64,000 nt of DNA from Candidatus Schekmanbacteria bacterium RIFCSPLOWO2_02_FULL_38_14 (GTDB taxonomy: Bacteria > Schekmanbacteria > GWA2-38-11), in NCBI GenBank assembly GCA_001790855.1, contig MGDH01000018.1, forward strand, positions 14,207 through 78,206. The letters are read 5' to 3'. This document shows, in pieces, positions 3,022-63,579 of the stretch. Made by a program: the position numbers and the translations under genes. Positions within the stretch are counted from its first letter, which is position 1. The number at the start of each line of letters is the position of its first letter. Under the pieces are notes generated by a model. That model did no database searches. It was not told where the DNA came from and was given only the letters and a program-made list of their open reading frames with translations.

Positions 3022-3127
3022 AATTCTGGCAGAACAGGCGCCTGCCTGCCGGCAGGCAGGTCTCGCCTGTCTGATAGGCAGGGTTTTCTAACCCTGCCAA
3101 ACTAATTTTCAGAAAAAAGGCAAAAGA

Positions 3128-4510: not shown

Positions 4511-4585
4511 TCAAATTCCCCCCTTACCCCCCTTTTCCCTGCCTGCCGGTAGGCAAGTAAAAAAAAGGGGGATGGGGGGATTAAT
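4511..4585. repeat. composite palindromic element: family B (C6/G6 hairpin) with a family C core (CCTGCCTGCCGGTAGGCAAG) nested in the loop
   Basis: aaattccccccttaccccccttttccctgcctgccggtaggcaagtaaaaaaaagggggatggggggatt; the 108-aa ORF 4437-4763 is produced by this repeat and is not a gene. Confidence 0.6.
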
Positions 4586-14157: not shown

Positions 14158-14206
14158 TCAAATCCCCCCTCGCCCCCCTTTAGCAAAGGGGGGTTGGGGG
14201 GATTTG
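14158..14206. repeat. palindromic element family B (AATCCCCCC-TCG-CCCCCC-TTTAGCAAA-GGGGGG-TTG-GGGGGATT)
   Basis: Perfect hairpin with palindromic loop; identical in sequence (reverse orientation) to the copy embedded in ppx at 15989-16033. Confidence 0.65.
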
Positions 14207-15530: not shown

Positions 15531-15668
15531 AATAAGTTCAAATTTCAAAATCCAAAATTCAAAATCAAATAAGAGCTTCAAGTGATTATTTTTTCACTTA
15601 AACCTTTGAATCCCTGACACTCTGAACCCTTTTTTATTTGAACTTTGAGCTTTGGCATTTGACATTTT
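15531..15668. repeat. AT-rich palindromic element family A copy
   Basis: aataagttcaaatttcaaaatccaaaattcaaaatc ... ctttgaatccctgacactctgaaccc ... tttgaactttgagctttggcatttgacatttt. Confidence 0.6.
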
Positions 15669-16611
15669 ATATCATCTCCATCATTACACCATAGCGCAGC
15701 CCTCTTGTGCTCACATGTAGCTCATAGAATTTCAGATAGTTTATTATCTCTTCAAGAATAATAGCTCCAGCAATAATAACATCTGCTCTATCAGGTTCAA
15801 GACCTATTATCTTTTTCCTCTCATCCATGTCCTTTTTCTTCAAAACAGAAATAATTCTTTTTAAATTTTCACTTTTCAATTTCCAATTTTCAATTTTCAA
15901 CCTGTCATATCCTGGGATTTTCAGGTCTATCTGCGCAAGGGTGGTGACTGTTCCTGCAACTCCGATTAGAAGATTATCCTTGTTAGGCAAATCCCCCCAA
16001 CCCCCCTTTGCTAAAGGGGGGCGAGGGGGGATTTGCTTGAGATTATTTTTTATTGCTTCCCTTATATTTCTAACCTCATTTTCTTCTACAGGGTCTGATT
16101 TCAAGAACTTTTCTGTCAGTCTCACTGAGCCGATTTCAAGGCTTTTAGAATATTGAATTTTATCATCTGCTCCAAAAATTATTTCAGTGCTTCCTCCTCC
16201 AATATCTATGATTGTTGTATTAATACCTTTATCTTCTATTCCTGAAACTGCTCCAAGAAAAGAAAGCTCAGCTTCTTTTTTCCCTGATATTACTTCAACT
16301 ATTATATCTGTTTCATTTTTTACAAGATTTAAGAAGGCTGATGAGTTTTCTGCCATTCTTAAAGCGCTTGTTCCCACTACCTTGATATTTTCTGCTCCTG
16401 ATTTTTTGCACTTATCAATATAGTCCTTCAGAACGCTGAGGGTTTTTGTCATCGCTTCGTTTTTTATCAGTTTTGTATCATAAACCCCTTTGCCGATTCT
16501 TGTAACTTTTAAATCTTCGTGGATGGGTTCAATGTGTTTATTTTTATCAATTCTTCCTATTAATAATAAAACTGAGTTTGTTCCTATATCTATTGCACCA
16601 TAAGTTTTCAT
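15667..16611 (-). CDS. ppx: Ppx/GppA-family exopolyphosphatase / guanosine pentaphosphate phosphohydrolase
   Basis: MKTYGAIDIGTNSVLLLIG N-terminus and IGGGSTEII actin-like ATPase motifs; carries an in-frame family-B repeat insertion. Confidence 0.8.
   Translation of the reverse strand: MKTYGAIDIGTNSVLLLIGRIDKNKHIEPIHEDLKVTRIGKGVYDTKLIKNEAMTKTLSVLKDYIDKCKKSGAENIKVVGTSALRMAENSSAFLNLVKNETDIIVEVISGKKEAELSFLGAVSGIEDKGINTTIIDIGGGSTEIIFGADDKIQYSKSLEIGSVRLTEKFLKSDPVEENEVRNIREAIKNNLKQIPPRPPLAKGGWGDLPNKDNLLIGVAGTVTTLAQIDLKIPGYDRLKIENWKLKSENLKRIISVLKKKDMDERKKIIGLEPDRADVIIAGAIILEEIINYLKFYELHVSTRGLRYGVMMEMI
15989..16033. repeat. family-B palindromic element embedded in-frame inside ppx (encodes IPPRPPLAKGGWGDLP)
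   Basis: Reverse-complement translation checked by hand: atc ccc cct cgc ccc cct tta gca aag ggg ggt tgg ggg gat ttg cct gives IPPRPPLAKGGWGDLP inside the Ppx ORF. Confidence 0.7.
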
Positions 16612-16848
16612 AAGGTTACTTCAAAAATTAGTTTAATTATTTTTATTCTTGACTCTTGACTATCTTTTAGCTTGCATATATCAAATATGTTTTAAAAGAT
16701 TAAAGCAAAAAAGGATTTGTAGAAACAGACCTTAAGGTCTGTTGTCAACAGGTCTAAAGACCTGTTTCTACATTTTAAAAAACTTACTACTTACAGCTCA
16801 ATGCTTATAGCTTACAGCCATTAAAAGTCTTAAATCAAGGAGAAGTTT

Positions 16849-23232: not shown

Positions 23233-24474
23233 TTATTCTTCCTCCAATTCCGCTTTGAGAAGTTCTGATTTTAGATAAAAAGCTCCATCAGTGACCACAC
23301 TATCTCCGGCTTTAAGCCCTTTTAGAACTTGATAAAAACCATTTATTTCTTCTCCTACTTCTATTTCTCTTTTTTCAAAGGTATTGTTGCTCTTTGCAAT
23401 AAAGATAATTTTCTTTCCATCCTCCATCTGAATTGCTTTTTCAGACACAACCAACAACTCTGGGGACGATTTAGTTATAATCTGTACATCAGCAAACATT
23501 TCGGGTTTCAGAATCCCCCCATTCCCCCCTTTAAAATCCCCCTCAGCCCCCCTTTTCCAAAGGGGGGTGTGGGGGGATTCAGGGGGATTATCAATCTCAA
23601 TCCTTACTTTTGCCATACGGGTTGAAGCATCTACAATATCACTAATATAAGTGACTTTTCCTTTAAACTCTTCTTTAGGATAAGTTGAGACTTTAATATT
23701 TGCTTCCAACCCCTTTTCAACTGATGATATATCCTTCTCAGGAACATCAGCTATAACCCATAATCTTGATAAATCTATAATAGTAAAAAGCTGACTTGAA
23801 GACTCAATTACTTCTCCTAAAGTCAAGTTCCTTTCAACCACTGTTCCAGAAAACGGAGATCTTATTGACATTTGAGGATTGATTATGTGGGTTGAGGTCA
23901 ATCTTTCTATATCTTTATCACTTATTCCAAAAAGGTATAATTTCTCTTTAGAGGCTTGAAACTCTGCTTTGACATTTAAATACTCTGCCTCTCTCCGTTG
24001 AAACTCACCAAGTCCGATTGCTTTACCGTCAAAAAGCCTTTTTGCACGCTCATACCCCTTTTCAGCTACCCTCAAATTCGCTTCAAGTTTTAGAAAATTT
24101 GACTCTGCTTCTCCAAGTTCAGGACTGTCTATTGTGGCAAGGGCTTCACCTTTTTTAACCTCGTCACCAAGATTTACTTTTATCTCAATAACCCTTCCAG
24201 GTATTCTGCTTCCTATACGGGCAACTCTGTTTTCATCAGGCATTATTTTGCCAGGAAAATTATGAGAAAGGCTTAGTTTTTTTAATGTTACCTCTTCAAC
24301 TTTTATCCCTGCTATTTTTATAGAGGAAGGATCAAAATGAACTATATTTAGATTGGTATCTTGCTTGGTTACATTTTCTTTGTTCTCTTTTTTTGGAGAA
24401 CATGCGTTGAAAGTAAAAACACCAATTTGTAAAATTAAAATCATTAAAAGTAAATTAATCAGATTTTTTTTCAT
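23233..24474 (-). CDS. czcB: RND efflux membrane fusion protein (CzcB/HlyD family), with in-frame repeat insertion
   Basis: Lipoprotein-like N-terminus, coiled-coil hairpin, beta-barrel motif ...IEIDNP[insert]LKPEMFADVQI; family-B repeat at 23506-23583 encodes NPPESPHTPLWKRGAEGDFKGGNGGI in-frame. Confidence 0.8.
   Translation of the reverse strand: MKKNLINLLLMILILQIGVFTFNACSPKKENKENVTKQDTNLNIVHFDPSSIKIAGIKVEEVTLKKLSLSHNFPGKIMPDENRVARIGSRIPGRVIEIKVNLGDEVKKGEALATIDSPELGEAESNFLKLEANLRVAEKGYERAKRLFDGKAIGLGEFQRREAEYLNVKAEFQASKEKLYLFGISDKDIERLTSTHIINPQMSIRSPFSGTVVERNLTLGEVIESSSQLFTIIDLSRLWVIADVPEKDISSVEKGLEANIKVSTYPKEEFKGKVTYISDIVDASTRMAKVRIEIDNPPESPHTPLWKRGAEGDFKGGNGGILKPEMFADVQIITKSSPELLVVSEKAIQMEDGKKIIFIAKSNNTFEKREIEVGEEINGFYQVLKGLKAGDSVVTDGAFYLKSELLKAELEEE
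23506..23583. repeat. tandem family-B palindromic element embedded in-frame in czcB
   Basis: aatccccccattcccccctttaaaatccccctcagccccccttttccaaaggggggtgtggggggattc; hand translation of the reverse strand matches the ORF-track protein. Confidence 0.7.
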
Positions 24475-26316: not shown

Positions 26317-26880
26317 TTGAAGAAGCAGTCATGGAATGAAAAATATAGTGAAGATGAATATGCGTTAGGAATTGAGCCTGCGGAATTTCTTGTTGAGCAT
26401 ATTGGAAGGCTTACAAAAGGAAAAGCACTTGATATTGCAATGGGCGAGGGGAGGAATGCAGTTTATTTAACAAAGAAGGGTTATGAGGTAGACGGTGTTG
26501 AATTTTCAGAGGAGGGGATAAAAAAGGCATTAGCCCTTGCCCAAAAAAACAATGTTACTATCAATGCTATAAGGGCTGACCTTGAAAAACACGAGCATAG
26601 AATAGAAAAAGAGAAATATGATTTAATCTCCTGCTTTTATTATTTGCAGAGAGACTTGTTTCCGGAGATTAAGGAAGGATTAAAAAAAGGAGGGATGGTA
26701 ATCTGCCAGACCTTTACAACAGACAACCTGAAATACCAGCCCCACCCCAAAAACCCTGACCATGTATTGCAGCCAAATGAGCTTTTCAGGTATTTTCTTG
26801 ATTTGAGAATTATTTTTTACAGGGAATGTGTTTTGAATAACGAGACTGCTGTTGCAAGCATTATTGCGCAGAAGATATAG
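26317..26880 (+). CDS. class I SAM-dependent methyltransferase (TehB/TPMT-like)
   Basis: Motif I LDIAMGEGRNAVYL, acidic residue after beta-2 (VDGVEFSE); 187 aa. Confidence 0.6.
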   Translation: MKKQSWNEKYSEDEYALGIEPAEFLVEHIGRLTKGKALDIAMGEGRNAVYLTKKGYEVDGVEFSEEGIKKALALAQKNNVTINAIRADLEKHEHRIEKEKYDLISCFYYLQRDLFPEIKEGLKKGGMVICQTFTTDNLKYQPHPKNPDHVLQPNELFRYFLDLRIIFYRECVLNNETAVASIIAQKI

Positions 26881-26918
26881 TAAAAAGGTCTTAGGGTCAA
26901 GGGTCAAGGATGAAAAAT

Positions 26919-26966
26919 TAAATCCCTCCAGCCCCCCTTTGATAAAGGGGGGTAAGGGGGGATTTT
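26919..26966. repeat. family-B palindromic element (intergenic)
   Basis: aaatccctccagccccctttgataaaggggggtaaggggggattttt. Confidence 0.6.
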
Positions 26967-26993
26967 TCATAAAAGTAAAAGAGGTAAATTAAA

Positions 26994-40731: not shown

Positions 40732-40854
40732 CAGGCTGCTTAATGTCATTTCTGCCTGCCTGTCGGCACCTGTCTGCCGCCTGACTGCCGTCAGGCAGGT
40801 CAGGCTGGGACAGGTAAGAGCAGGAATCCAAAAGCAAAGGAGGTTAATAATCTT

Positions 40855-48472: not shown

Positions 48473-48508
48473 AAAAATATATAGGAGTCTGTCAGAGAAC
48501 CCTTTTTT

Positions 48509-48659
48509 GTCATTGCGAGCGACTCCCTCGATATTGCTCGGGACAGGCTCCGGGAGCGTGGCAATCTCAAATCCCCCTATATCCCCCTTTTCCCTGCCTG
48601 CCGGTAGGCAAGTAAAGGGGGAGAAAAGAGGGATTGCTTTGGATTCGCCTCGCAATGAC
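48509..48659. repeat. nested palindromic element ~150 nt: family D termini, then GCAATCTC/GAGGGATTGC, then family B C-runs, then family C core
   Basis: gtcattgcgagcgactccc...gtggcaatctcaaatccccctatatcccccttttccctgcctgccggtaggcaagtaaagggggagaaaagagggattgctttggattcgcctcgcaatgac. Confidence 0.6.
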
Positions 48660-48713
48660 AAGAAAACTCATATTATTTAGAATTTCGAATTTAGGATTTT
48701 AGATTTTAAATAC

Positions 48714-49808
48714 ATGGTTAAATATTTTACATTTTTTAGTATTATTCTCCTGGTCTTTTTTTCTCTTGCCATCTTTAAGGATTATGATAGAGAGTGGAAG
48801 GATTTCCAGAAGAGGTTCTACGAGATTGAATCAGAGAGAGGAAAAAACGCTGAAGAGAAAAAAGTGATAAGAAATACTCCTTTGAGAATAAAACAGATAG
48901 TGTTAGAGGATTTGAATAGAGTTGATAGGTGCACAACCTGCCATCTCGGAATGGAATATGAGAAAAAGTCTTACAAAAAGAATCCATATAAGTCTCATCC
49001 CGACCCAACAATGCATCCCTTTGATCAATTTCCCTTTGATAGATTTGGATGCACCATCTGCCATGAAGGGCAGGGAAGAGCTACTACAAAGGATGATGCC
49101 CATGGTGATGTGGATTTCTGGGATAAGACCATGCTAAGGGGTATTTATCTGCAAGCCTCATGTCTAAAATGTCATGATGACCCTGACCTTAAGGGTGCTG
49201 AGATTGCAATGAAAGGGAAAAAACTTTTTGAGGAAAATGACTGCTATGAGTGTCATAAAGTAGGAGATAAAGGAGAAAGTGTAGGACCTGAGCTTACAAA
49301 GGAAGGATTAAAGACAAAACACCATTTTGATTTTACCCGTGTAAAGGGCAAGCACACTATTGCTAACTGGCAATTCGAGCATCTAAAAAATCCGGAAGCA
49401 GTTGTTCCTGATTCAGTGATGCCAAATTTGGAACTCAGTGATGAAGATGCAAGAGCCTTGACTATATATCTCTTAAGCCTTACTGATGAAAAGGTGCCAG
49501 AAGAATACATAGCGTCTCTAAAAAGAGGTCCTATCCTTGCATTAAGTAGAAAAGTTACAAAGCCTGAGATGAGTCCAGGTGAAAAGCTTTATATAGAGAT
49601 GAACTGCTATTACTGCCATAAGATAAAAGGGGAAGGAGGTGATGGAGCACCTGATTTAACTGGAGTTGGCGCAAGGCATGATGAAGATTGGCTTATAAAA
49701 CATTTTGACACTCCGCGGTCAATAAGTCCTCATTCTTTTATGCCTGACTATAAACTTACACCCGAGGAGATAAAGGCTCTGACAGATTTTATGTTGACTT
49801 TGAAATAG
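48714..49808 (+). CDS. pentaheme c-type cytochrome associated with the Rieske/cyt b genes (C-terminal class-I monoheme domain)
   Basis: N-terminal TM anchor; CTTCH, CTICH, CLKCH, CYECH, CYYCH; C-terminal CYYCHKIKGEGGDGAPDL...FMPDY typical class-I cytochrome c. Confidence 0.75.
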   Translation: MVKYFTFFSIILLVFFSLAIFKDYDREWKDFQKRFYEIESERGKNAEEKKVIRNTPLRIKQIVLEDLNRVDRCTTCHLGMEYEKKSYKKNPYKSHPDPTMHPFDQFPFDRFGCTICHEGQGRATTKDDAHGDVDFWDKTMLRGIYLQASCLKCHDDPDLKGAEIAMKGKKLFEENDCYECHKVGDKGESVGPELTKEGLKTKHHFDFTRVKGKHTIANWQFEHLKNPEAVVPDSVMPNLELSDEDARALTIYLLSLTDEKVPEEYIASLKRGPILALSRKVTKPEMSPGEKLYIEMNCYYCHKIKGEGGDGAPDLTGVGARHDEDWLIKHFDTPRSISPHSFMPDYKLTPEEIKALTDFMLTLK

Positions 49809-49840
49809 CTATGAGACAAAGGTTTTCATAAAACAATCAA

Positions 49841-50000
49841 GCCCAGAAGGGCTTTTCCACAGTTTTATGTGGGAGAGCCTTTTTAGGCTCGATAGCGAAG
49901 AAAAAAATAAGGAGGTGATGAGACAAGCTACATAGTAAGGGAAAGAGTTTAGATTTAAATTCTGTTAGCTACCGGATATATTTAAGAAAAAGGAGGAACT
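49841..50000 (+). promoter_or_regulatory. conserved leader/promoter module (copy 1): GCCC-AGAA-GGGC hairpin, CCACAG-TTTTAT-GTGGGAG hairpin, GAGCC-TTTTT-AGGCTC hairpin, A-rich tract, TTTAGATTTAAATTCTGTTAGCTACCGGATATATTTAAG, AGGAGG RBS
   Basis: Near-identical ~140-nt block recurs at 53010-53149 upstream of the next gene; hairpins and a TTGAAT/TTTAAA-17nt-ATATAT promoter-like spacing seen in sequence. Confidence 0.45.
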
Positions 50001-52790
50001 ATGATTGAAGAAGTATTTTTGATACTGAAAAGAAAATGGTTTATATGTGCATTGGCTTTTCTTTTTGCCATTTCAGCATCCTATGTTTTTGAGAAAGAAG
50101 CCAGTGCAGCAAAAACTTATAACATAGTGGTTAAGATAAAGTCAAATAAAGCCACTAACAGAACAGGCGTAGCGGTAGAGGTCACAGGAGGAGATTTAAC
50201 AACACCCAAGACTGCTACAACGAAAAAAACAGGTATTGTAAAGTTTACAAAACTTGCTAAAGGAACTTACACTGTTACTCCTGCAAAGGAAGGCTATACC
50301 TTTGACCCTGAATCAAAGCCTGTTACATTTGCAACAAGGAGAACAGTAAATGTTGTTTTTAAGTCAACAGAGGTTGTAATTCCTGTTACTGAAGAGGCTA
50401 TAACTCTGTCAACATCTGCAAACGGGACTCACTTTGCTGCGGGTGAGAAACCAATAATCACCATTTCTCTGCCCGACCTGTCCAGCCGCAGTGACTATTC
50501 GCAGCTACGCCTGGTGGTTTATGGTCCACAGGAAACGACCAAGACTAAAACAGCGGTGAATCTGCTCAATGCGTCCACTGACCGTTCCTTAGCTAACACG
50601 GGCCCGCATCACTACATTGACCTCGTTACAGACACCAATGTTCAGCTCAATGATAATATTCTGACCTATACGCTCCAGCCAATCACAGATGAAGAAGCAG
50701 GGACATACACAGCAAGTTTGTGGGCTGTTTTGAAAGATGACCCTTCTGTGCAGTCGTTCCCGCTTGCTGATTTCCAGATTGGAACAGCTACTGCTGAGAC
50801 GCAAATAGTAGAGAGGGAAAATTGTTCTGTCTGCCATAAGGGTGCTGATAGCGGGAAATATTACTTCCATCACATAGATCCTCGTACCGCCGGTTCATCT
50901 GGATACCCATCAATTGACTCGTGGGCAGTGAGAACGTGCAAGAGCTGCCATAACACAGATGGCTATGCAGCATACACTGATCCCGCTAATCCCTCTGCCA
51001 CTGATGGCTCTAATAAAATTCCGGATCCGATTGTAAAGCGTGTACATGGTGTTCATATGGGAGAGGAGTTAAAGAACGCGCTCAACACTGACGCGACGAC
51101 AGGTATTTTCAAAAACTACACAAGTGTGGTATTTCCTGCAAATGTCAAGAACTGCACTATGTGTCACGTGGATGATAAATGGAAGACCACACCTTCACGT
51201 CTTGCTTGTGGCGCCTGCCATGATAATATCTGGTTTGGTGATCCGGCAGCCCTTCCTTCAGGACAAGAGGCACATCCTGGTTTACAACAGGATAGCGATA
51301 CCGGATGCTCTACCTGCCACCCTGCAGATGGTTCATGGACCAAGGGTTCGGCACCTGCACCCATTTCAACGGTTCACAAGGTTGATTCGCCAGCTTACAA
51401 GTATACTGTAGAGATTAGCCTAAGCGCACCGGCAAATGAGACTCACTATGTTGCGGGCGAGGCGCCTCAGGTAACAATAACAATCAAAGATGCTACCACT
51501 GGTGCCACAATTGACCCGAACACGCTAACAGAGACCGCCTTCAGCCGTGCCTCTCTCTACGTCTCCGGCCCGCGTGAAAATACAAAACCTGTGCTTACCA
51601 CCTCGGCCAAGGGCCTTGGAGCCGTCCGTGCTTTGGCGACGAACAGCAAGGATGGACCCTGGGATCTGTCAGGCGACCCTACCTTTATCATTGGCATTGA
51701 CGGTACCTCCCGCACGGTAACGGCTGCGGCAAGTAATTTCGCAAATCCGGCAGCTGCGACCCAGGCAGAGGTCATTACATGGCTGAAAAAGGCGCTTCCT
51801 GATGGCATTGGCGATGTGGCGACAGTCTCTGCGTCTGGCACAACAAAAGTCACGATTAAAAGCAATACCAGAGGCTCGACATCCAAGGTCGAGATCTTTG
51901 CAAGTTCAGTTGCAACGGCTATGGGGTGGACCGTTGGTGCGAAAACCCCTACACCTCGTTCCTATGCCAGCAATGACTTCCGCGTCCGCAAAGATTCTTT
52001 TGATGAGGATCCGAAGGTGAGTCGTTCCACCACTGCAGTTACGTACCAGTTAGACGATGTTGCCGGTCTGACCTCAGGCACCTATACTGCTTTTGCCCAG
52101 ATGAGTCCGACATCTGGTTTTGGCGGCTCGGCGGTGGTCAATTTCCAAGTGGGTGGGGCTACAGAAGAAAAGAAGGTTGCTACAAACTGTACCAATTGCC
52201 ATGGTGATACAACAATGCACAGCACCTCCTTATCAGTGCCATTCAATCCAGACATCTGCAAGAACTGCCACGATTACAATCGTGAGGGGACTGGATATGG
52301 TTGGGCCGGCGCTCCCCCGACCGGAACGAACGGGACCTCAACGAGCGGCTGGAGCGGTTTTGGTGCCAAGCCCTTATCAAGCAGAATCCACGGTGTTCAC
52401 CGCGGTCGTTATCTGGAGCATCCTGAGGATGTAAAACCACTGTATAGGCTCGTAAGCGGGGTTGCCACGTATTGGCCTGAATACGATTTCTCTGAAGTGA
52501 TTTTCCCTCAGGATATAAGAAACTGCACCAAGTGTCACAGCGCCGATACGACCGGGACTTGGAAGACAGAACCATCTCGGTTAGCCTGTCTTGCCTGCCA
52601 CGACAACGATGAGGCAACTACCCACGGTAATCTGATGACGTATGATACGACACCTACAGATCCATGGAGCGGTGATGAGATAGAGACATGTGTTGTGTGT
52701 CATGGTTCTGGTAGGGACTTTTCTCCTGACAAGGTGCACAATATCTCGAGTCCCTATAAGCCACCGTATCTACGAGAGCCTGCAGAGTAA
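50001..52790 (+). CDS. large secreted decaheme c-type cytochrome (929 aa), mosaic composition
   Basis: Signal/anchor N-terminus, beta-sandwich N-domain. Ten CxxCH sites: CSVCH, CKSCH, CTMCH, CGACH, CSTCH, CTNCH, CKNCH, CTKCH, CLACH, CVVCH. Internal duplicated module (CxxCH...WKT.PSRLAC.ACHDN occurs twice). Bases ~50420-52790 are ~55% GC vs ~33% elsewhere. Confidence 0.8.
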   Translation: MIEEVFLILKRKWFICALAFLFAISASYVFEKEASAAKTYNIVVKIKSNKATNRTGVAVEVTGGDLTTPKTATTKKTGIVKFTKLAKGTYTVTPAKEGYTFDPESKPVTFATRRTVNVVFKSTEVVIPVTEEAITLSTSANGTHFAAGEKPIITISLPDLSSRSDYSQLRLVVYGPQETTKTKTAVNLLNASTDRSLANTGPHHYIDLVTDTNVQLNDNILTYTLQPITDEEAGTYTASLWAVLKDDPSVQSFPLADFQIGTATAETQIVERENCSVCHKGADSGKYYFHHIDPRTAGSSGYPSIDSWAVRTCKSCHNTDGYAAYTDPANPSATDGSNKIPDPIVKRVHGVHMGEELKNALNTDATTGIFKNYTSVVFPANVKNCTMCHVDDKWKTTPSRLACGACHDNIWFGDPAALPSGQEAHPGLQQDSDTGCSTCHPADGSWTKGSAPAPISTVHKVDSPAYKYTVEISLSAPANETHYVAGEAPQVTITIKDATTGATIDPNTLTETAFSRASLYVSGPRENTKPVLTTSAKGLGAVRALATNSKDGPWDLSGDPTFIIGIDGTSRTVTAAASNFANPAAATQAEVITWLKKALPDGIGDVATVSASGTTKVTIKSNTRGSTSKVEIFASSVATAMGWTVGAKTPTPRSYASNDFRVRKDSFDEDPKVSRSTTAVTYQLDDVAGLTSGTYTAFAQMSPTSGFGGSAVVNFQVGGATEEKKVATNCTNCHGDTTMHSTSLSVPFNPDICKNCHDYNREGTGYGWAGAPPTGTNGTSTSGWSGFGAKPLSSRIHGVHRGRYLEHPEDVKPLYRLVSGVATYWPEYDFSEVIFPQDIRNCTKCHSADTTGTWKTEPSRLACLACHDNDEATTHGNLMTYDTTPTDPWSGDEIETCVVCHGSGRDFSPDKVHNISSPYKPPYLREPAE

Positions 52791-52811
52791 ATAAAGCAAG
52801 GTGGATTCGTT

Positions 52812-52856
52812 AACAAGCCTATTCCCGATGGGGGGGGGTAGGCTTGTTATTTTATC
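52812..52856 (+). terminator. rho-independent terminator after the decaheme gene (aacaagcct...aggcttgtt + T-run)
   Basis: 9-bp stem, G-run loop, followed by attttat. Confidence 0.5.
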
Positions 52857-53009
52857 AAATATTTCTAATTAGCCATATGAGATATTATAGGAGGAAGAGA
52901 TAAAGGTTCTGATTAAATAGAGGTTGACTTTGAAATAGGTATAGGCTAAAAGTTTTTGCAAAATAATCGGCCCCACAGAAGGGGCCTCCCCTGCCTGCGG
53001 TAGGCAGGC

Positions 53010-53149
53010 ACAGTTTTATGTGGGAGCGCCTTTCAAGGCTCGATATAGAAAAGAAAAAAATGGAAAGGGGTGATGCAATAGAATAGATAAAAACTGGAGA
53101 AGGTTAGATTTGAATTCTGTTAGCTACCGAATATATTTAAGGAGGATAT
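53010..53149 (+). promoter_or_regulatory. conserved leader/promoter module (copy 2), paralogous to 49841-50000
   Basis: cacagttttatgtgggagcgcctttcaaggctcgata...ttagatttgaattctgttagctaccgaatatatttaaggagg atg; a family-C palindrome is inserted just upstream (52988-53011). Confidence 0.45.
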
Positions 53150-54679
53150 ATGAAGAGAAATTTATTTTTGACGACAATTTTCGTAGGAGTGTTTATCTCC
53201 TCGATTCTTTCCTTTTCCTATGCCACTGCTAAGGGGAAACCAGGAAAGAAGCCAACGGTTATAAGCATAACCCCGAAAACAGGAGCACAAGGGGAACCCC
53301 TTGATGTAACTATAAAAGGAAAGAATTTTGTTGACACACCTACTGTTAGTTTAGGCGCAGGGATAACTGTGAATGGAGTTGAGTTTGTCTCAGCGACAAA
53401 GTTAACTGCAAACATCACTATTGCCTCAGATGCTAAGATAGGACCAAAACCTGTAACTGTTACTAATCCTGATGGGAAAAAAAGCCAGGCAAAGAAAATT
53501 TTCAAGGTTAAGAAAAGCACATTACCTCAGGCTGATATAATTGCTAAAAAGGTAACAGATGAACCAGGTGAGGCTGATTGGGCAAAAATATCTGGTTCAT
53601 TAATCCAGACAACAGGCAACCCAGCAACTGGAGGACATGGTGCTCTCGGTGAAGAGAATCTCGTTGCAGTAAAGCTTCAGGCATCTCATGACAGCACAAA
53701 TATCTTCATGAGATTTGAATGGGATGACTCAACCCAGAATAACACCCATGAGGTCTGGACATATAGTGCAAGCAGTAGCACATGGTCTAAAGCTGGCAAT
53801 GAGGACAGAATTCTTATTGCATGGCCAATTACAGACGTTGCTGGCAGAGAGGGAAAAACTTTTCAGGAGATTGGATGTGCAATGCTCTGCCACCTGAAGG
53901 ATGCAAATGACCCAACTAAAACTAAGATTGTGCCTAACACCACTGACGCAGTCAATGATTGTTCAGTTTGCCATCCAAATTCTTCAGGTAAAGATACAAC
54001 CTTTGTCCATGTATTACCTACATCAGCTCAAACTTGTATTAGCTGCCATGCTGATAGGGAGATTGAAGAGATTGCTGATATGGGTTCACCTTCTGGTGGT
54101 GCCTTTGACATCTGGCACTGGAAAGCTGGAAGAAGCGATGGTATAGGACTTGCTGAGGACCAGGAAGCATCTGACGGCAAACTTCGAACAAATGATGGTG
54201 CAGGGCTTACAAGCAATAACGATGGTCCTGCTGGATTCACGGACAGGCCAAAATATATCTGGACTGCTGCTTCAGGTAAAGGAGCTTCTCCTGTAACAGA
54301 GATAATAAAGAATAGCGAGATCGCATCCCTTAAGGCTTCAAATTACCTTGCTGAGATAAATGCTACTGATGGGAAATATTATCTTAGCAATGGAACAACT
54401 GAAGAAGTTCTAGGGGATGGTGCGCAAGTGAGGAGAAGAATCCTTAAGGATGGAACCAATATTACAGAGCCTGGCAATGGAGATATCAAGGCATCAAGCG
54501 GCTATTTAGACGGAAAATGGACAGTAGTACTTAAGAGAAAACTCAATACTACTGACACTAAAGACTATGTGTTCAAAACAGGTGAAACTGATATAAACTA
54601 CTTTGGATTTGCTGTCACTGACAACAGCGGGAACAGCCATAAAGCAAAGGCTTTGCTGAAATTGAGGTTTGGGCAGTAA
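53150..54679 (+). CDS. secreted IPT/TIG-domain protein with c-type heme motifs (one CX3CH plus two CxxCH)
   Basis: Signal peptide. N-terminal IPT/TIG-like Ig domain (VISITPKTGAQGEPLDVTIKGKNF). Heme motifs GCAMLCH (verified on DNA: tgt gca atg ctc tgc cac), CSVCH, CISCH. Confidence 0.65.
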   Translation: MKRNLFLTTIFVGVFISSILSFSYATAKGKPGKKPTVISITPKTGAQGEPLDVTIKGKNFVDTPTVSLGAGITVNGVEFVSATKLTANITIASDAKIGPKPVTVTNPDGKKSQAKKIFKVKKSTLPQADIIAKKVTDEPGEADWAKISGSLIQTTGNPATGGHGALGEENLVAVKLQASHDSTNIFMRFEWDDSTQNNTHEVWTYSASSSTWSKAGNEDRILIAWPITDVAGREGKTFQEIGCAMLCHLKDANDPTKTKIVPNTTDAVNDCSVCHPNSSGKDTTFVHVLPTSAQTCISCHADREIEEIADMGSPSGGAFDIWHWKAGRSDGIGLAEDQEASDGKLRTNDGAGLTSNNDGPAGFTDRPKYIWTAASGKGASPVTEIIKNSEIASLKASNYLAEINATDGKYYLSNGTTEEVLGDGAQVRRRILKDGTNITEPGNGDIKASSGYLDGKWTVVLKRKLNTTDTKDYVFKTGETDINYFGFAVTDNSGNSHKAKALLKLRFGQ

Positions 54680-54876
54680 GAACAATCAACTGTGAGAGAG
54701 CCTTTCCCTGCCTACTGCAGGCAGGCTCGATAAATATTTTCTGGATTAAAGCCGTCAGGGAAAAATTCTCTGACGGCTTTAATATTTGCAATGAAAAATA
54801 AATCTGATATATAAAGTAAAATTTTTAAATCTTGTAGGAAAGACTTTTAGACTCGATGAATATTTTTTGATTAAAC

Positions 54877-55803
54877 CTATTTCCCCTGCTGCTTAGCCAT
54901 TGCAGCTTTTACCGCAGGGACTGCTTTTTTAACAAAGTCAGAAACGTGCTGGAATTCTATACCAAAAATATCCTTTATTCCTTTGTGGTCAAGGATTGTG
55001 TCATTCATAAAGTCCTTAATCTGTTCAGCAGTGAAGAATGACTTCTGCGGATTTGCTTTTACCATTTCAATTAACTGCTCCTTTGAAACACCCTCTGTAT
55101 AGTTTGCCTTTATGCCTGCCTCTTTTGCAATCATATTGAGGAGGTCTCCCTGCGTAATGCAGTCTGGTCCGCCAATCTCAAGGCTTTTGTTTGCTGACTT
55201 TGGATTTGTGAGTGCATCTACCATGCATTTTGCAAGGTCAACATGGGAGAGAGGATTCATGTGGAAGGTCACCGGTCCAAAGGGCCATTTGGCTGCTTCA
55301 CCCATTTTCAATACATTTGGGACATGGAAGAACTGGAAATCCTTGAACATTCCTGATGGTTTAAAAATCGTATAACCGATTCCTGAATTTCTGATTGTCT
55401 CCTCAGACTGGTGTTTTGCCATGTACATGTCAGATACGGATTGTGGACCAACTCCGACTGCTGTTACATGAATTATTTTTTTTACTCCATTTTTCTTTGC
55501 CACTTCCACAAGATTATTTACTCCTGTAAGCTCCACATCCTCATATTTCCGTCCTTTTTTAATTTCACCAGGAGTGAGTCTTATTGAAATAATAAGCGCA
55601 TCTATTCCCTTCATGGCAGGTTCAAGAGAAGTCTTGTCAAGAATATCTCCTTCAAAAAATTCTATTTTGCTTTTTGCTTCTCCCAGTTTGTCCCTGTTAG
55701 AAGTGCTTCTTACCAGCGCTCTTACCTTGTGCCCTTTTGCCACAGCAATTTTTGCTGCTTCAGAACCAACATCTCCTGTTGCGCCTATGACTAAAATATT
55801 CAT
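54877..55803 (-). CDS. NmrA-like / atypical SDR NAD(P)-binding protein
   Basis: MNILVIGATGDVGSEAAKIAVAKGHKVRALVRS Rossmann N-terminus; 308 aa. Confidence 0.7.
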   Translation of the reverse strand: MNILVIGATGDVGSEAAKIAVAKGHKVRALVRSTSNRDKLGEAKSKIEFFEGDILDKTSLEPAMKGIDALIISIRLTPGEIKKGRKYEDVELTGVNNLVEVAKKNGVKKIIHVTAVGVGPQSVSDMYMAKHQSEETIRNSGIGYTIFKPSGMFKDFQFFHVPNVLKMGEAAKWPFGPVTFHMNPLSHVDLAKCMVDALTNPKSANKSLEIGGPDCITQGDLLNMIAKEAGIKANYTEGVSKEQLIEMVKANPQKSFFTAEQIKDFMNDTILDHKGIKDIFGIEFQHVSDFVKKAVPAVKAAMAKQQGK

Positions 55804-55917
55804 ATATTAATCCTCCTGAGAATTCGTTGTAATTGTTTTTGATTGATTACCTTAGTAATTTTTGTTTATAGGATAAAGGTATTTTCATGTCAATTGGAAA
55901 GGCATCTTATCAGGTTG

Positions 55918-56046
55918 ACCGAGAATCTCAAATCCCCCTCTATTCCCCTTTTCCCTGCCTGCCGGCAGGCAAGTAATGGGGGAGAAAAGAGAGATTGCTT
56001 TGTCGCCTGCCTGCGGTAGGCAGGCTTTGCTCCTCGCAATGACATT
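55918..56046. repeat. composite palindromic element (family B C-runs + two family C cores + family D right terminus)
   Basis: gaatctcaaatccccctctattccccttttccctgcctgccggcaggcaagtaatgggggagaaaagagagattgctttgtcgcctgcctgcggtaggcaggctttgctcctcgcaatgac; ORF 55885-56127 is produced by it. Confidence 0.6.
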
Positions 56047-56059
56047 GTCGGGGAGATTG

Positions 56060-62838: not shown

Positions 62839-63579
62839 TGTGAATTAGTTTTGTATAAATTGCAGAGAATCTTTTCAAAACGGAATTTTATAAAAATTTT
62901 TATTTGAAATATATTTTACTTAAAAACTTTATAATGTAAAGGAAAAGATGACTTACTATTCATTCCTTTAATTCAAAGCCAAGATTGAATCCTGTTGTAG
63001 AATCATCAAAAGGAATTGCTGAGGGGTTTTTTACTTATGCACATGGTATTATCTTGCCGGTACATTTCCGACAAATTTCCGATAAAATATACGCCCCCCC
63101 ACGGTTGGAAGTATCAGCCACAATCAGCCAACCGTCATCTGTCCATTTCTTGCTTAACCCCGAAGGGGTGACATAAACCCTATTTCTTTCTCAGTGTTCT
63201 CTGTCTGCCTGCCGGCAGGCAGGTGTCTCTGTGGTGAAAAATTATTTGGTTCTAAGCAAGACCTTATTATGATTCCTGGGAACTTTTTATTTGAGGTAGT
63301 TGCTGAAAGAAGCATGGTGAATTGAAGTGAAAAGTAACTTTTGAGAAGAAGCAAAAAGAGACGGGATTAGTGAGGGAGGACGACCCTTCCTTTATTCTCT
63401 TCTTGATTTCGCTTGTCGCGGTATAAAAACCTCTAATCTTAACTCGTCATCAATTGTAAAGTGTTCTTATTCAACAACGTCCCTCTTCTTTCCAACTTTC
63501 AATCTAATCGGTTTTGTCTTCGCTATATAATAAGTGCGCGTCGTGCTTTTGCGTGTTAGGCGAAGTGCCGTTGATGTAA

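Follow-up and report, generated by a model that had tools for sequence, protein, structure and literature searches.

A short palindromic repeat carried in frame within ppx and a membrane-fusion protein gene of a Schekmanbacteria genome

In a stretch of 64,000 nucleotides (nt) from Candidatus Schekmanbacteria bacterium RIFCSPLOWO2_02_FULL_38_14 (contig MGDH01000018.1, hereafter the window), a palindrome built on runs of six C and six G residues, which we call the C6/G6 element, lies between genes and also inside two open reading frames (ORFs), those of the phosphatase Ppx and of a CzcB/CusB-type membrane-fusion protein (MFP). The repeat is dispersed. Each of the two intact genes holds it as an extra piece, which lies in a loop of the encoded protein. 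In the MFP gene one copy has inserted into another, in relatives the insert has decayed or been lost, and the same family is found across phyla in many housekeeping genes. [quoted passage not shown]

The C6/G6 element and its two host genes

The short form of the element is a near-perfect palindrome of 44-46 nt with the arms AAATCCCCCC..CCCCCCTTT-loop-AAAGGGGGG..GGGGGGATTT. The window holds four occurrences of its core, CCCCCCTTTNNNAAAGGGGGG; dinucleotide-preserving shuffles give an expectation of 0.01, and none of them reached four. The census of the 64 kb comprises four short and three long copies (Table 1); the long copies, recovered by a scan for C/G runs and head motifs, hold a second palindrome, CCTGCCTGCCGGYAGGCA, in the loop. 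As single-stranded DNA, short copies are predicted to fold into one long bulged hairpin (-23.7 and -24.8 kcal/mol, z -6.7 and -7.1 against shuffles), the first of each pair of values belonging to the intergenic copy at 14160-14205. That copy reads AAATCCCCCC-TCG-CCCCCC-TTTAGCAAA-GGGGGG-TT-GGGGGGATTT and lies outside any ORF. The copy within ppx, 1.8 kb away, is its exact reverse complement, identical at 46/46 nt including the spacers TCG and TT and the loop AGC. An initial annotation of this DNA had described the palindrome at 14158-14206 and again within ppx, and the sequence is indeed present at both places.

Across the element the ppx ORF reads ...LKQIPPRPPLAKGGWGDLPNKD... without a stop codon or frameshift, and the peptides encoded at the insert include QIPPRPPLAK and GGWGDLPNK. 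A Ppx with the same insert and one residue different is recorded from ENA contigs. The nearest insert-free orthologues (P0003 and P0004, 60-62% identity by BLASTP) share the pgi-ppx-asd neighborhood; when aligned, these and all more distant Ppx homologues pass from a helix directly into the LIGVAGT strand. Two closer relatives (P0002 and P0005, 65-68% by BLASTP) carry a different, longer palindrome, TCCCCTCTCCCC..GGGGAGAGGG..AGGGTGAGGG, at the same ppx codon position. In an alignment to Aquifex aeolicus PPX (2j4r), the insert falls opposite a gap just ahead of the strand that leads up to the second ASKHA phosphate-binding motif. The AlphaFold2 model of Ppx has a mean predicted local distance difference test score (pLDDT) of 92.4, while the insert (residues ~192-212) scores about 52 and is modeled as coil between the helix at 177-191 and the strand at 213-218. 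As a separate observation, the ppx loop of two related loci, L001 (2222-2330) and L002, is filled by a palindrome of the family TCACCCTCCCC..TCCCCTCTCCCC-TT-GGGGGAAAGGGA..AGGGTGAGGG, giving the peptide SPLPLGERDRVRE. It follows the same head-hairpin-head plan but with T-interrupted C-runs, and may represent a sister family of the C6/G6 element.

The MFP gene is flanked by genes for an outer-membrane factor and an AcrB-family resistance-nodulation-division (RND) pump, in an OEP-MFP-RND operon. Its ORF reads ...DNPPESPHTPLWKRGAEGDFKGGNGGILKPEMF... across the element, again with neither stop nor frameshift, and the peptides encoded there include IEIDNPPESPHTPLWK and GGNGGILKPEMFADVQIITK. The same protein, residue for residue, is recorded from 8 contigs (NCBI, JGI, ENA, Logan), as Candidatus Schekmanbacteria bacterium GWA2_38_9. 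The insert is compound: a full 45-nt copy is nested in an older copy, whose right inner arm it replaces. The initial annotation had placed this insert at 23506-23583, called it a tandem copy and credited it with about 27 added residues; the coordinates are corrected here to 23512-23589, the arrangement is nested, with a single-copy allele in a relative, and the net gain against insert-free orthologues is about 21 residues. In an alignment to ZneB (3lnn) the MFP breaks exactly between residues 267 and 268, which are adjacent in the solved chain, and in the AlphaFold2 model residues 304-318, between the strands at 287-295 and 327-336, have a pLDDT below 50.

Relatives carry the MFP locus in several states. 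The empty allele (P0122/P0126; locus L126) reads GAT AAT CCA AAA CGG TTG TTG AAA, and all distant homologues in the alignment likewise have no insert. The single-copy allele (P0123; L125) has one 45-nt copy, NPPLPPFIKGGNGGI. A compound allele like that of the window (P0125; L128) comes from a second Schekmanbacteria genome whose protein is 80% identical; it differs by 5 substitutions in 78 nt, and 23 of the 26 insert residues are the same. In the decayed allele (P0124; L127) the palindromy of the compound copy is gone, and an in-frame stretch of 26 codons is still open. A neighbor-joining tree of the MFPs was built with the insert columns removed. The two empty alleles fell inside the element-bearing clade (bootstrap 88% with P0124, 99% with P0124 and P0123 together), and an element-bearing clade that excludes them was never recovered. 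The empty alleles read DNPKRL/LKPEMF where the outgroups read DNxxGK/LKPEMF, which, as far as sequences can tell, suggests a near-precise loss of the element that left CCA AAA CGG as a footprint; repeated gain at a hot spot is a possible alternative. 

For both genes, the initial annotation had proposed that the inserts are extra, in frame and in loops. Their absence from P0003/P0004, P0122/P0126 and all distant homologues, the intact genes with full-length Pfam matches and invariant motifs after the inserts, and the agreement of the structure alignments with the low-pLDDT coil between conserved elements bear this out. It had also named pseudogenization of the hosts as a result that would speak against it; both ORFs are full length and retain conserved catalytic or structural motifs.

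Table 1. Copies of the C6/G6 element in the window and the two genes that carry it
Feature	Coordinates	Strand	Remarks
ppx (Ppx/GppA phosphatase, 314 aa), intact	15667..16611	-	Pfam PF02541, E 1e-63, residues 23-313
CzcB/CusB-type RND membrane-fusion protein gene (413 aa), intact	23233..24474	-	Pfam HlyD_D23, E 8e-57
Short copy, intergenic	14160..14205 (46 nt with flanking A and T; AAT..ATT = 14161-14204)	+	between divergent thiF-like and asd genes
Short copy inside ppx	15989..16034 (46 nt; AAT..ATT 15990-16033)	-	encodes IPPRPPLAKGGWGDL
Compound (nested) element in MFP gene	23512..23589	-	78 nt = 26 codons, NPPESPHTPLWKRGAEGDFKGGNGGI
Outer partial copy of compound element	23512-23534 + 23580-23589	-	older copy
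Inner complete copy of compound element	23535..23579 (45 nt)	-	nested in older copy, replacing its right inner arm
Fourth short copy, intergenic	26921..26964	+	slightly degenerate head AATCCCTCC
Long ('family A') copy	4514..4582	+	same head, C/G arms; palindrome CCTGCCTGCCGGTAGGCA nested in loop
Degenerate long copy	48570..48635	+	nested CCTGCCTGCC palindrome; direct repeat of 55931-55996
Degenerate long copy	55931..55996	+	nested CCTGCCTGCC palindrome

Several further observations concern these copies and their surroundings. On the mRNA strand of the compound MFP copy (23512-23589, minus) four G-runs fall within 40 nt, GGGGGG-CUGA-GGGGG-AUUUUAAA-GGGGGG-AAU-GGGGGG, a canonical G-quadruplex motif in a coding region that would compete with the hairpin. 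Around the fourth short copy, comparison of 26873-26992 with L126 3487-4227 revealed an rsmE-like RNA methyltransferase gene in L126 between the TehB-like and HAD genes; its counterpart in the window is only the 118-nt spacer that holds the copy. The palindrome CCTGCCTGCCGGCAGGCAGG has six copies in the window against 0 expected, three of them solo and intergenic (~3041-3060, 40780-40799 and 63204-63223) and three nested in the loop of a C/G-arm element (4538, 48593 and 55954); palindromes of this genome nest within one another's loops. The spacer between ppx and pgi (16719-16800) holds a GTAG-tagged palindromic doublet, GTAGAAACAGACC..GGTCTGTT..AACAGGTC..GACCTGTTTCTAC, which is missing from the otherwise alignable spacer of L001 and occurs at another locus in L126 (5172-5229, 91% identity); it is a second, REP/REPIN-like mobile family of the same genome. 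Inverted repeats of another family, TGTCATTGCGAG...CTCGCAATGACA, enclose the long copies at 48500-48660 and 56000-56050; they presumably give the 'RFARND/LAMT'-like peptides of metagenome-assembled genome (MAG) annotations. The region 48570-55996 is bracketed by two ~90%-identical composite repeats in direct orientation, 7.3 kb apart. Its center has a G+C content of 0.45-0.48 against ~0.36, and its genes encode a multi-haem cytochrome c, an MtrC/MtrF-like outer-membrane cytochrome of 929 aa, a protein with an EB_dh haem domain and an NmrA-like protein. The region may have been acquired horizontally, as an island for extracellular electron transfer.

The element family in other genomes, metagenomes and viruses

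We scanned one genome per bacterial or archaeal species with the pattern CCCCCC-N2-4-CCCCCCTTT-N0-6-AAAGGGGGG, metagenome contigs with the symmetric form, and viral contigs with the unit; each scan returned at least 120 stretches. The genome matches listed come from more than 10 phyla, including Nitrospirota, Thermodesulfobacteriota and other 'Deltaproteobacteria' (Desulfobacterota), Beta- and Gammaproteobacteria, Cyanobacteria, Chloroflexota, Planctomycetota, Methylomirabilota, Acidobacteriota, Chlamydiae, Binatia and others. Isolates are among the hosts (Chromatium okenii, Thiorhodococcus, Lysobacter, Luteimonas, Iodobacter, Lyngbya and Geomesophilobacter). The flank ahead of the first C-run, which had not been part of the search, reads AAT in 139/152 and AAAT in 115/152 of the genome matches listed. 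Since AAT is conserved although it lies outside the pattern, the conserved unit is asymmetric, with a head (AAATCCCCCC), a spacer of 2-4 nt and a hairpin C6TTT-loop-AAAG6 (CCCCCCTTT-loop-AAAGGGGGG). Only 26/152 of these matches, mostly from Nitrospirota, are like the window in having a head on both sides. In Proteobacteria and others, two inverted units bound elements of 80-170 nt with inverted ends of ~33 nt, in the manner of MITEs (L029, L052, L081, L097), and head-to-head doublets also occur in other phyla. With a single hairpin serving both ends, the 44-46 nt form of the window represents the minimum. On viral contigs from IMG/VR (L329 6584-7924, L340, L358, L265), the unit is found flanking Mu-type portal and T4-type large-terminase genes. 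The element is carried by phages, which could provide a route for its spread between phyla. A BLAST search of a plasmid collection found solo copies with a GAT head on one finished cyanobacterial plasmid and nothing informative beside them.

In about 12 copies from the genome loci, the unit lies inside a long ORF with Pfam domains on both sides. The Nitrospirae hosts are a radical-SAM protein and a CbiG-CobJ fusion with two copies; the others are RecJ, a family-3 glycosidase (GH3; two copies), Tex, a TPS/CHAT protein, a hybrid sensor kinase of Chromatium okenii, CobN of Halothece, and the editing domain of LeuRS in a Nitrospinota MAG, where the insert reads EIPPHPPLEKGGWGDL, almost the Ppx peptide. 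We took the 74 symmetric metagenomic copies on contigs of less than 55% G+C that had enough flank, and scored as intragenic those within an ORF that extends for at least 75 codons on each side. Eighteen of the 74 (24%) were intragenic, 14 reading NPPxPP(F/L)xKGGxGG and 4 reading IPPxPPLxKGGxGD. Bacterial genomes are roughly 85-90% coding, so that a share of 24% represents a strong depletion from genes; even so, the family is far more tolerated in genes than classical REPs. Every intragenic copy examined (2 in the window, ~12 in genomes and 18 in metagenomes) is free of stops and in frame. Because the C/G runs admit no stop codon, the ppx/intergenic copy can be read through in at least five of its six frames, and stops could arise only in the loop or in the AAAT/ATTT ends. 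Both orientations read Pro-Pro ... Lys-Gly-Gly, a peptide that suits a disordered loop.

These surveys also bear on the wider claims of the initial annotation. Its comparison with the dispersed palindromes of Rickettsia was right as to class, the same DNA being intergenic nearby. Its statement that in-frame elements of this kind are rare elsewhere does not hold, given the same unit in frame in the RecJ, LeuRS, Tex, CobN, CbiG, GH3, radical-SAM and sensor-kinase genes of other phyla and the intragenic metagenomic copies. That the element is active or recently active can be maintained at most for the ppx copy, on the strength of its identity with its intergenic neighbor; the MFP copy is old, being common to the 80%-identity orthologue and decayed in another lineage.

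A proposed route of spread and its alternatives

The following course of events would account for these findings. Two heads flanking one shared hairpin, in the window genome and mainly in Nitrospirota, would generate the short palindrome, while elsewhere two head-and-hairpin units would serve as ~33-nt terminal inverted repeats of the 80-170 nt elements. Copies would land, or be copied by recombination, anywhere in the genome, and the intragenic survivors would be only those that keep the frame, lack stops and fall in permissive surface loops. The element would be mobilized in trans, most plausibly by a RAYT/IS200-type HUH transposase specific for hairpins of single-strand DNA (RAYT, REP-associated tyrosine transposase) or else by a DDE transposase that recognizes the 33-nt ends, and gene conversion between copies would add to the spread. 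The hairpin-specific HUH enzyme is a candidate by analogy with the REP/RAYT and IS200/IS605 systems (PMC3116915). The inserts are presumably translated and probably close to selectively neutral. An all-vs-all BLASTP comparison of 3,333 ORFs from 120 genome loci found no recurrent gene family beside the copies other than generic ones (sensor kinases, ABC ATPases); the lack of an adjoining protein-coding partner is expected of non-autonomous elements. Between the members of 30 inverted pairs there were no transposase genes, the ORFs being ordinary or phage structural (purF-like, amidohydrolase, MnmA, portal, terminase), and neither these pairs nor the plasmid search yielded a parent insertion sequence with matching ends.

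A number of observations weigh against a mobile repeat that is a neutral passenger in genes. We infer mobility from the dispersal of the repeat and the identity of its copies, and a clean, recent pair of filled and empty sites was not found; for the intergenic copies, the region upstream of asd is too diverged in L001 and the 26921 locus is rearranged in L126. The net gain in length, 36 nt for ppx and 30 and 33 nt for the MFP gene, falls 12-15 nt short of the element, and intragenic copies measure 44, 45 and 46 nt, that is, all three length classes modulo 3. With gains so short and all length classes represented, simple cut-and-paste of a fixed unit fits poorly; nor does it suit a loop that holds different families or nested copies depending on the lineage, or palindromes that host other palindromes in their loops. 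Among 142 copies, direct repeats of 1-4 nt were at or below shuffle expectation, which gives no sign of a target-site duplication, although a 2-bp AT duplication hidden in AAT..ATT is possible. Outside the AAT/ATT ends of these copies, conservation is limited to W at -1 and +1, and palindromic extension of the flanks is only marginally above expectation. The neighborhoods of the copies yielded no RAYT or IS200-like gene, and a tblastn search of the window and 364 loci with an IS200 TnpA query, which is a weak test, gave 0 matches. Translation of the inserts, too, is something we infer. Finally, the element DNA of the MFP gene is 93.6% identical between the window and L128 compared with 82.2% for the rest of the gene, and 24/26 third codon positions agree within it compared with 212/302 elsewhere (Fisher p = 0.013), which is not the pattern of a neutral passenger. 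In L127, where the element has decayed, its identity is 64%, while the remainder of the gene keeps 76.5%. As judged from these sequences, the conservation points to a constraint at the level of DNA or RNA or, in lineages with a living family, to gene conversion.

Some of the same observations allow a bolder and decidedly more tentative proposal, which we consider possible but doubtful: that the C6/G6 head-and-hairpin unit is one horizontally spreading, pan-bacterial, phage-borne family that targets or overwrites existing hairpin sites instead of moving by classical cut-and-paste. It draws on the one protein loop that holds, depending on the lineage, different palindrome families or nested copies, on the empty alleles inside the element clade, on the short gains without target duplication and on the conservation above the synonymous rate. 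If this were true, we would be dealing with a genomic parasite compatible with coding, through which essential proteins in different phyla repeatedly acquire one and the same Pro/Gly loop.

The excess conservation of the MFP element over the surrounding coding sequence, third codon positions included, would also fit a hairpin that the host exploits as a cis element (a protein-binding site, an mRNA stabilizer or pause, or a bidirectional terminator-like structure), selected at the DNA or RNA level and functional in its intragenic copies. The near-invariance of the unit across phyla, the great stability of the hairpins, the four G-runs on the mRNA strand of the compound copy and the weak recovery of two copies in a terminator scan point the same way. 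We nevertheless regard this as unlikely, for copies occur in every context (divergent and co-directional spacers, unrelated genes) beside no recurrent gene family, decay freely in L127 and are lost in another lineage, while terminator-like matches in the region do not exceed shuffle expectation and no Rfam family is close. An intrinsic terminator in the plain sense was rejected: copies lie in ORFs and between divergent genes, the tail is ATTTG, and such matches are not above chance. Selection might instead act on the Pro/Gly-rich peptide as an adaptive linker or loop module, with the DNA palindromy and the intergenic copies secondary. The recurrence of PPxPP(F/L)xKGGxGG in many proteins and the insert residues kept between the window and P0125 would agree with this, but the identical DNA is non-coding 1.8 kb away, the copy at 26921 is non-coding as well, and ~76% of the metagenomic copies lie outside long ORFs. 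Moreover, three reading frames and both orientations are in use, the host proteins are functionally unrelated, and the AlphaFold2 models assign the insert no confident structure. We therefore consider a selected peptide very improbable.

Programmed bypassing has precedents in the mitochondrial 'byp' elements and T4 gene 60, and the very stable mRNA hairpin raises the thought that the insert might stay untranslated, through such bypassing over the GC-rich hairpin or through intron-like excision. Neither process would impose an open frame, whereas every intragenic copy examined keeps the frame without a stop, and the decayed copy of P0124, which has no palindrome left, is still open over its 26 in-frame codons; we give this proposal very little credence. 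Least credible is an artefact, whether mis-assembly at a repeat or dead genes. The source is a MAG, and repeats are assembly hazards, but the identical MFP comes from 8 contigs and a near-identical Ppx with the same insert from ENA contigs, the compound insert recurs, 5 substitutions apart, in a second Schekmanbacteria genome, both ORFs run their full length and keep their conserved motifs, and the family is also present in isolates and on a finished plasmid. Pseudogenes and mis-assembly were accordingly rejected, on the full-length Pfam matches, the independent assemblies and the second genome. A dispersed, mobile repeat filtered by selection within genes remains the explanation that we prefer.

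Meaning and relation to known repeats

In-frame palindromes are usually seen as a Rickettsia curiosity; here they occur in a free-living candidate phylum, by way of one 33-nt unit found in many phyla. A recurrent PPxPP(F/L)xKGGxGG loop has been added to RecJ, LeuRS, Tex, CobN, Ppx and RND adaptor proteins, and annotators and structure predictors should recognize such stretches as repeat-derived inserts. The inserts are handy markers of permissive protein loops, and the copies can serve as presence/absence characters for tracing strains and lineages in groundwater MAGs. Extreme conservation across phyla without a visible transposase poses a testable question, namely which enzyme moves or maintains the element.

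Rfam gave 0 matches in the window at the gathering score, the best permissive scores being ~23 bits against thresholds of 40-230, all to generic hairpins. Literature searches with sequence strings and six encoded peptides, in a coverage that excludes subscription journals, returned nothing relevant, and those by keyword led only to general work on REPs, MITEs and RPEs. The element also resembles the small dispersed repeats of cyanobacteria, reportedly described by Elhai et al. in 2008 as mobile repeats of ~20-30 nt that insert into other repeats and leave the frame unbroken where they lie in genes; these are said to have another sequence and to be restricted to cyanobacteria.

Insertion into ORFs is known for Rickettsia palindromic elements (RPEs), REPs and MITEs in several species (PMC3733652, PMC3184786, PMC10969869, PMC5896051). 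With REPs and REPINs the C6/G6 element shares short, G+C-rich imperfect palindromes, a conserved tag by the hairpin, singlets and, in other phyla, inverted doublets, a mostly extragenic location and the lack of a gene of its own (PMC3116915, PMC3733652). Its tag is AAAT+C6 and not GTAG/CGTC, its sequence has been kept from phylum to phylum, unlike that of REPs, which are typically lineage-specific, and its intragenic share (24%) is higher. The long forms resemble MITEs such as Correia, ERIC, Nezha and QMITE in their terminal inverted repeats of ~33 nt, short non-coding core, long hairpins, nesting and occasional in-frame ORF fusion (PMC3184786, PMC5896051), but have no target-site duplication and no parent insertion sequence that we could find. 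The window form is far below the usual MITE size, because its two inverted repeats overlap on one hairpin. Closest in behavior are the RPEs, dispersed palindromes that are intergenic as well as in frame in unrelated housekeeping genes, where they add a peptide at fold-compatible positions (PMC10969869; PMC3733652, summarizing Ogata et al. 2000). RPEs are ~100-150 bp long, form ten Rickettsia-specific families and encode a conserved peptide of ~30-50 aa, whereas the C6/G6 element measures 44-46 nt (78 nt when nested) and occurs in many phyla and on viral contigs; it is set apart by size, composition and host, not by comparison with RPE consensus sequences. The kind of element is known, while the C6/G6 family and its breadth appear to be undescribed: it is an analogue of the RPEs, but not an RPE by sequence or size.

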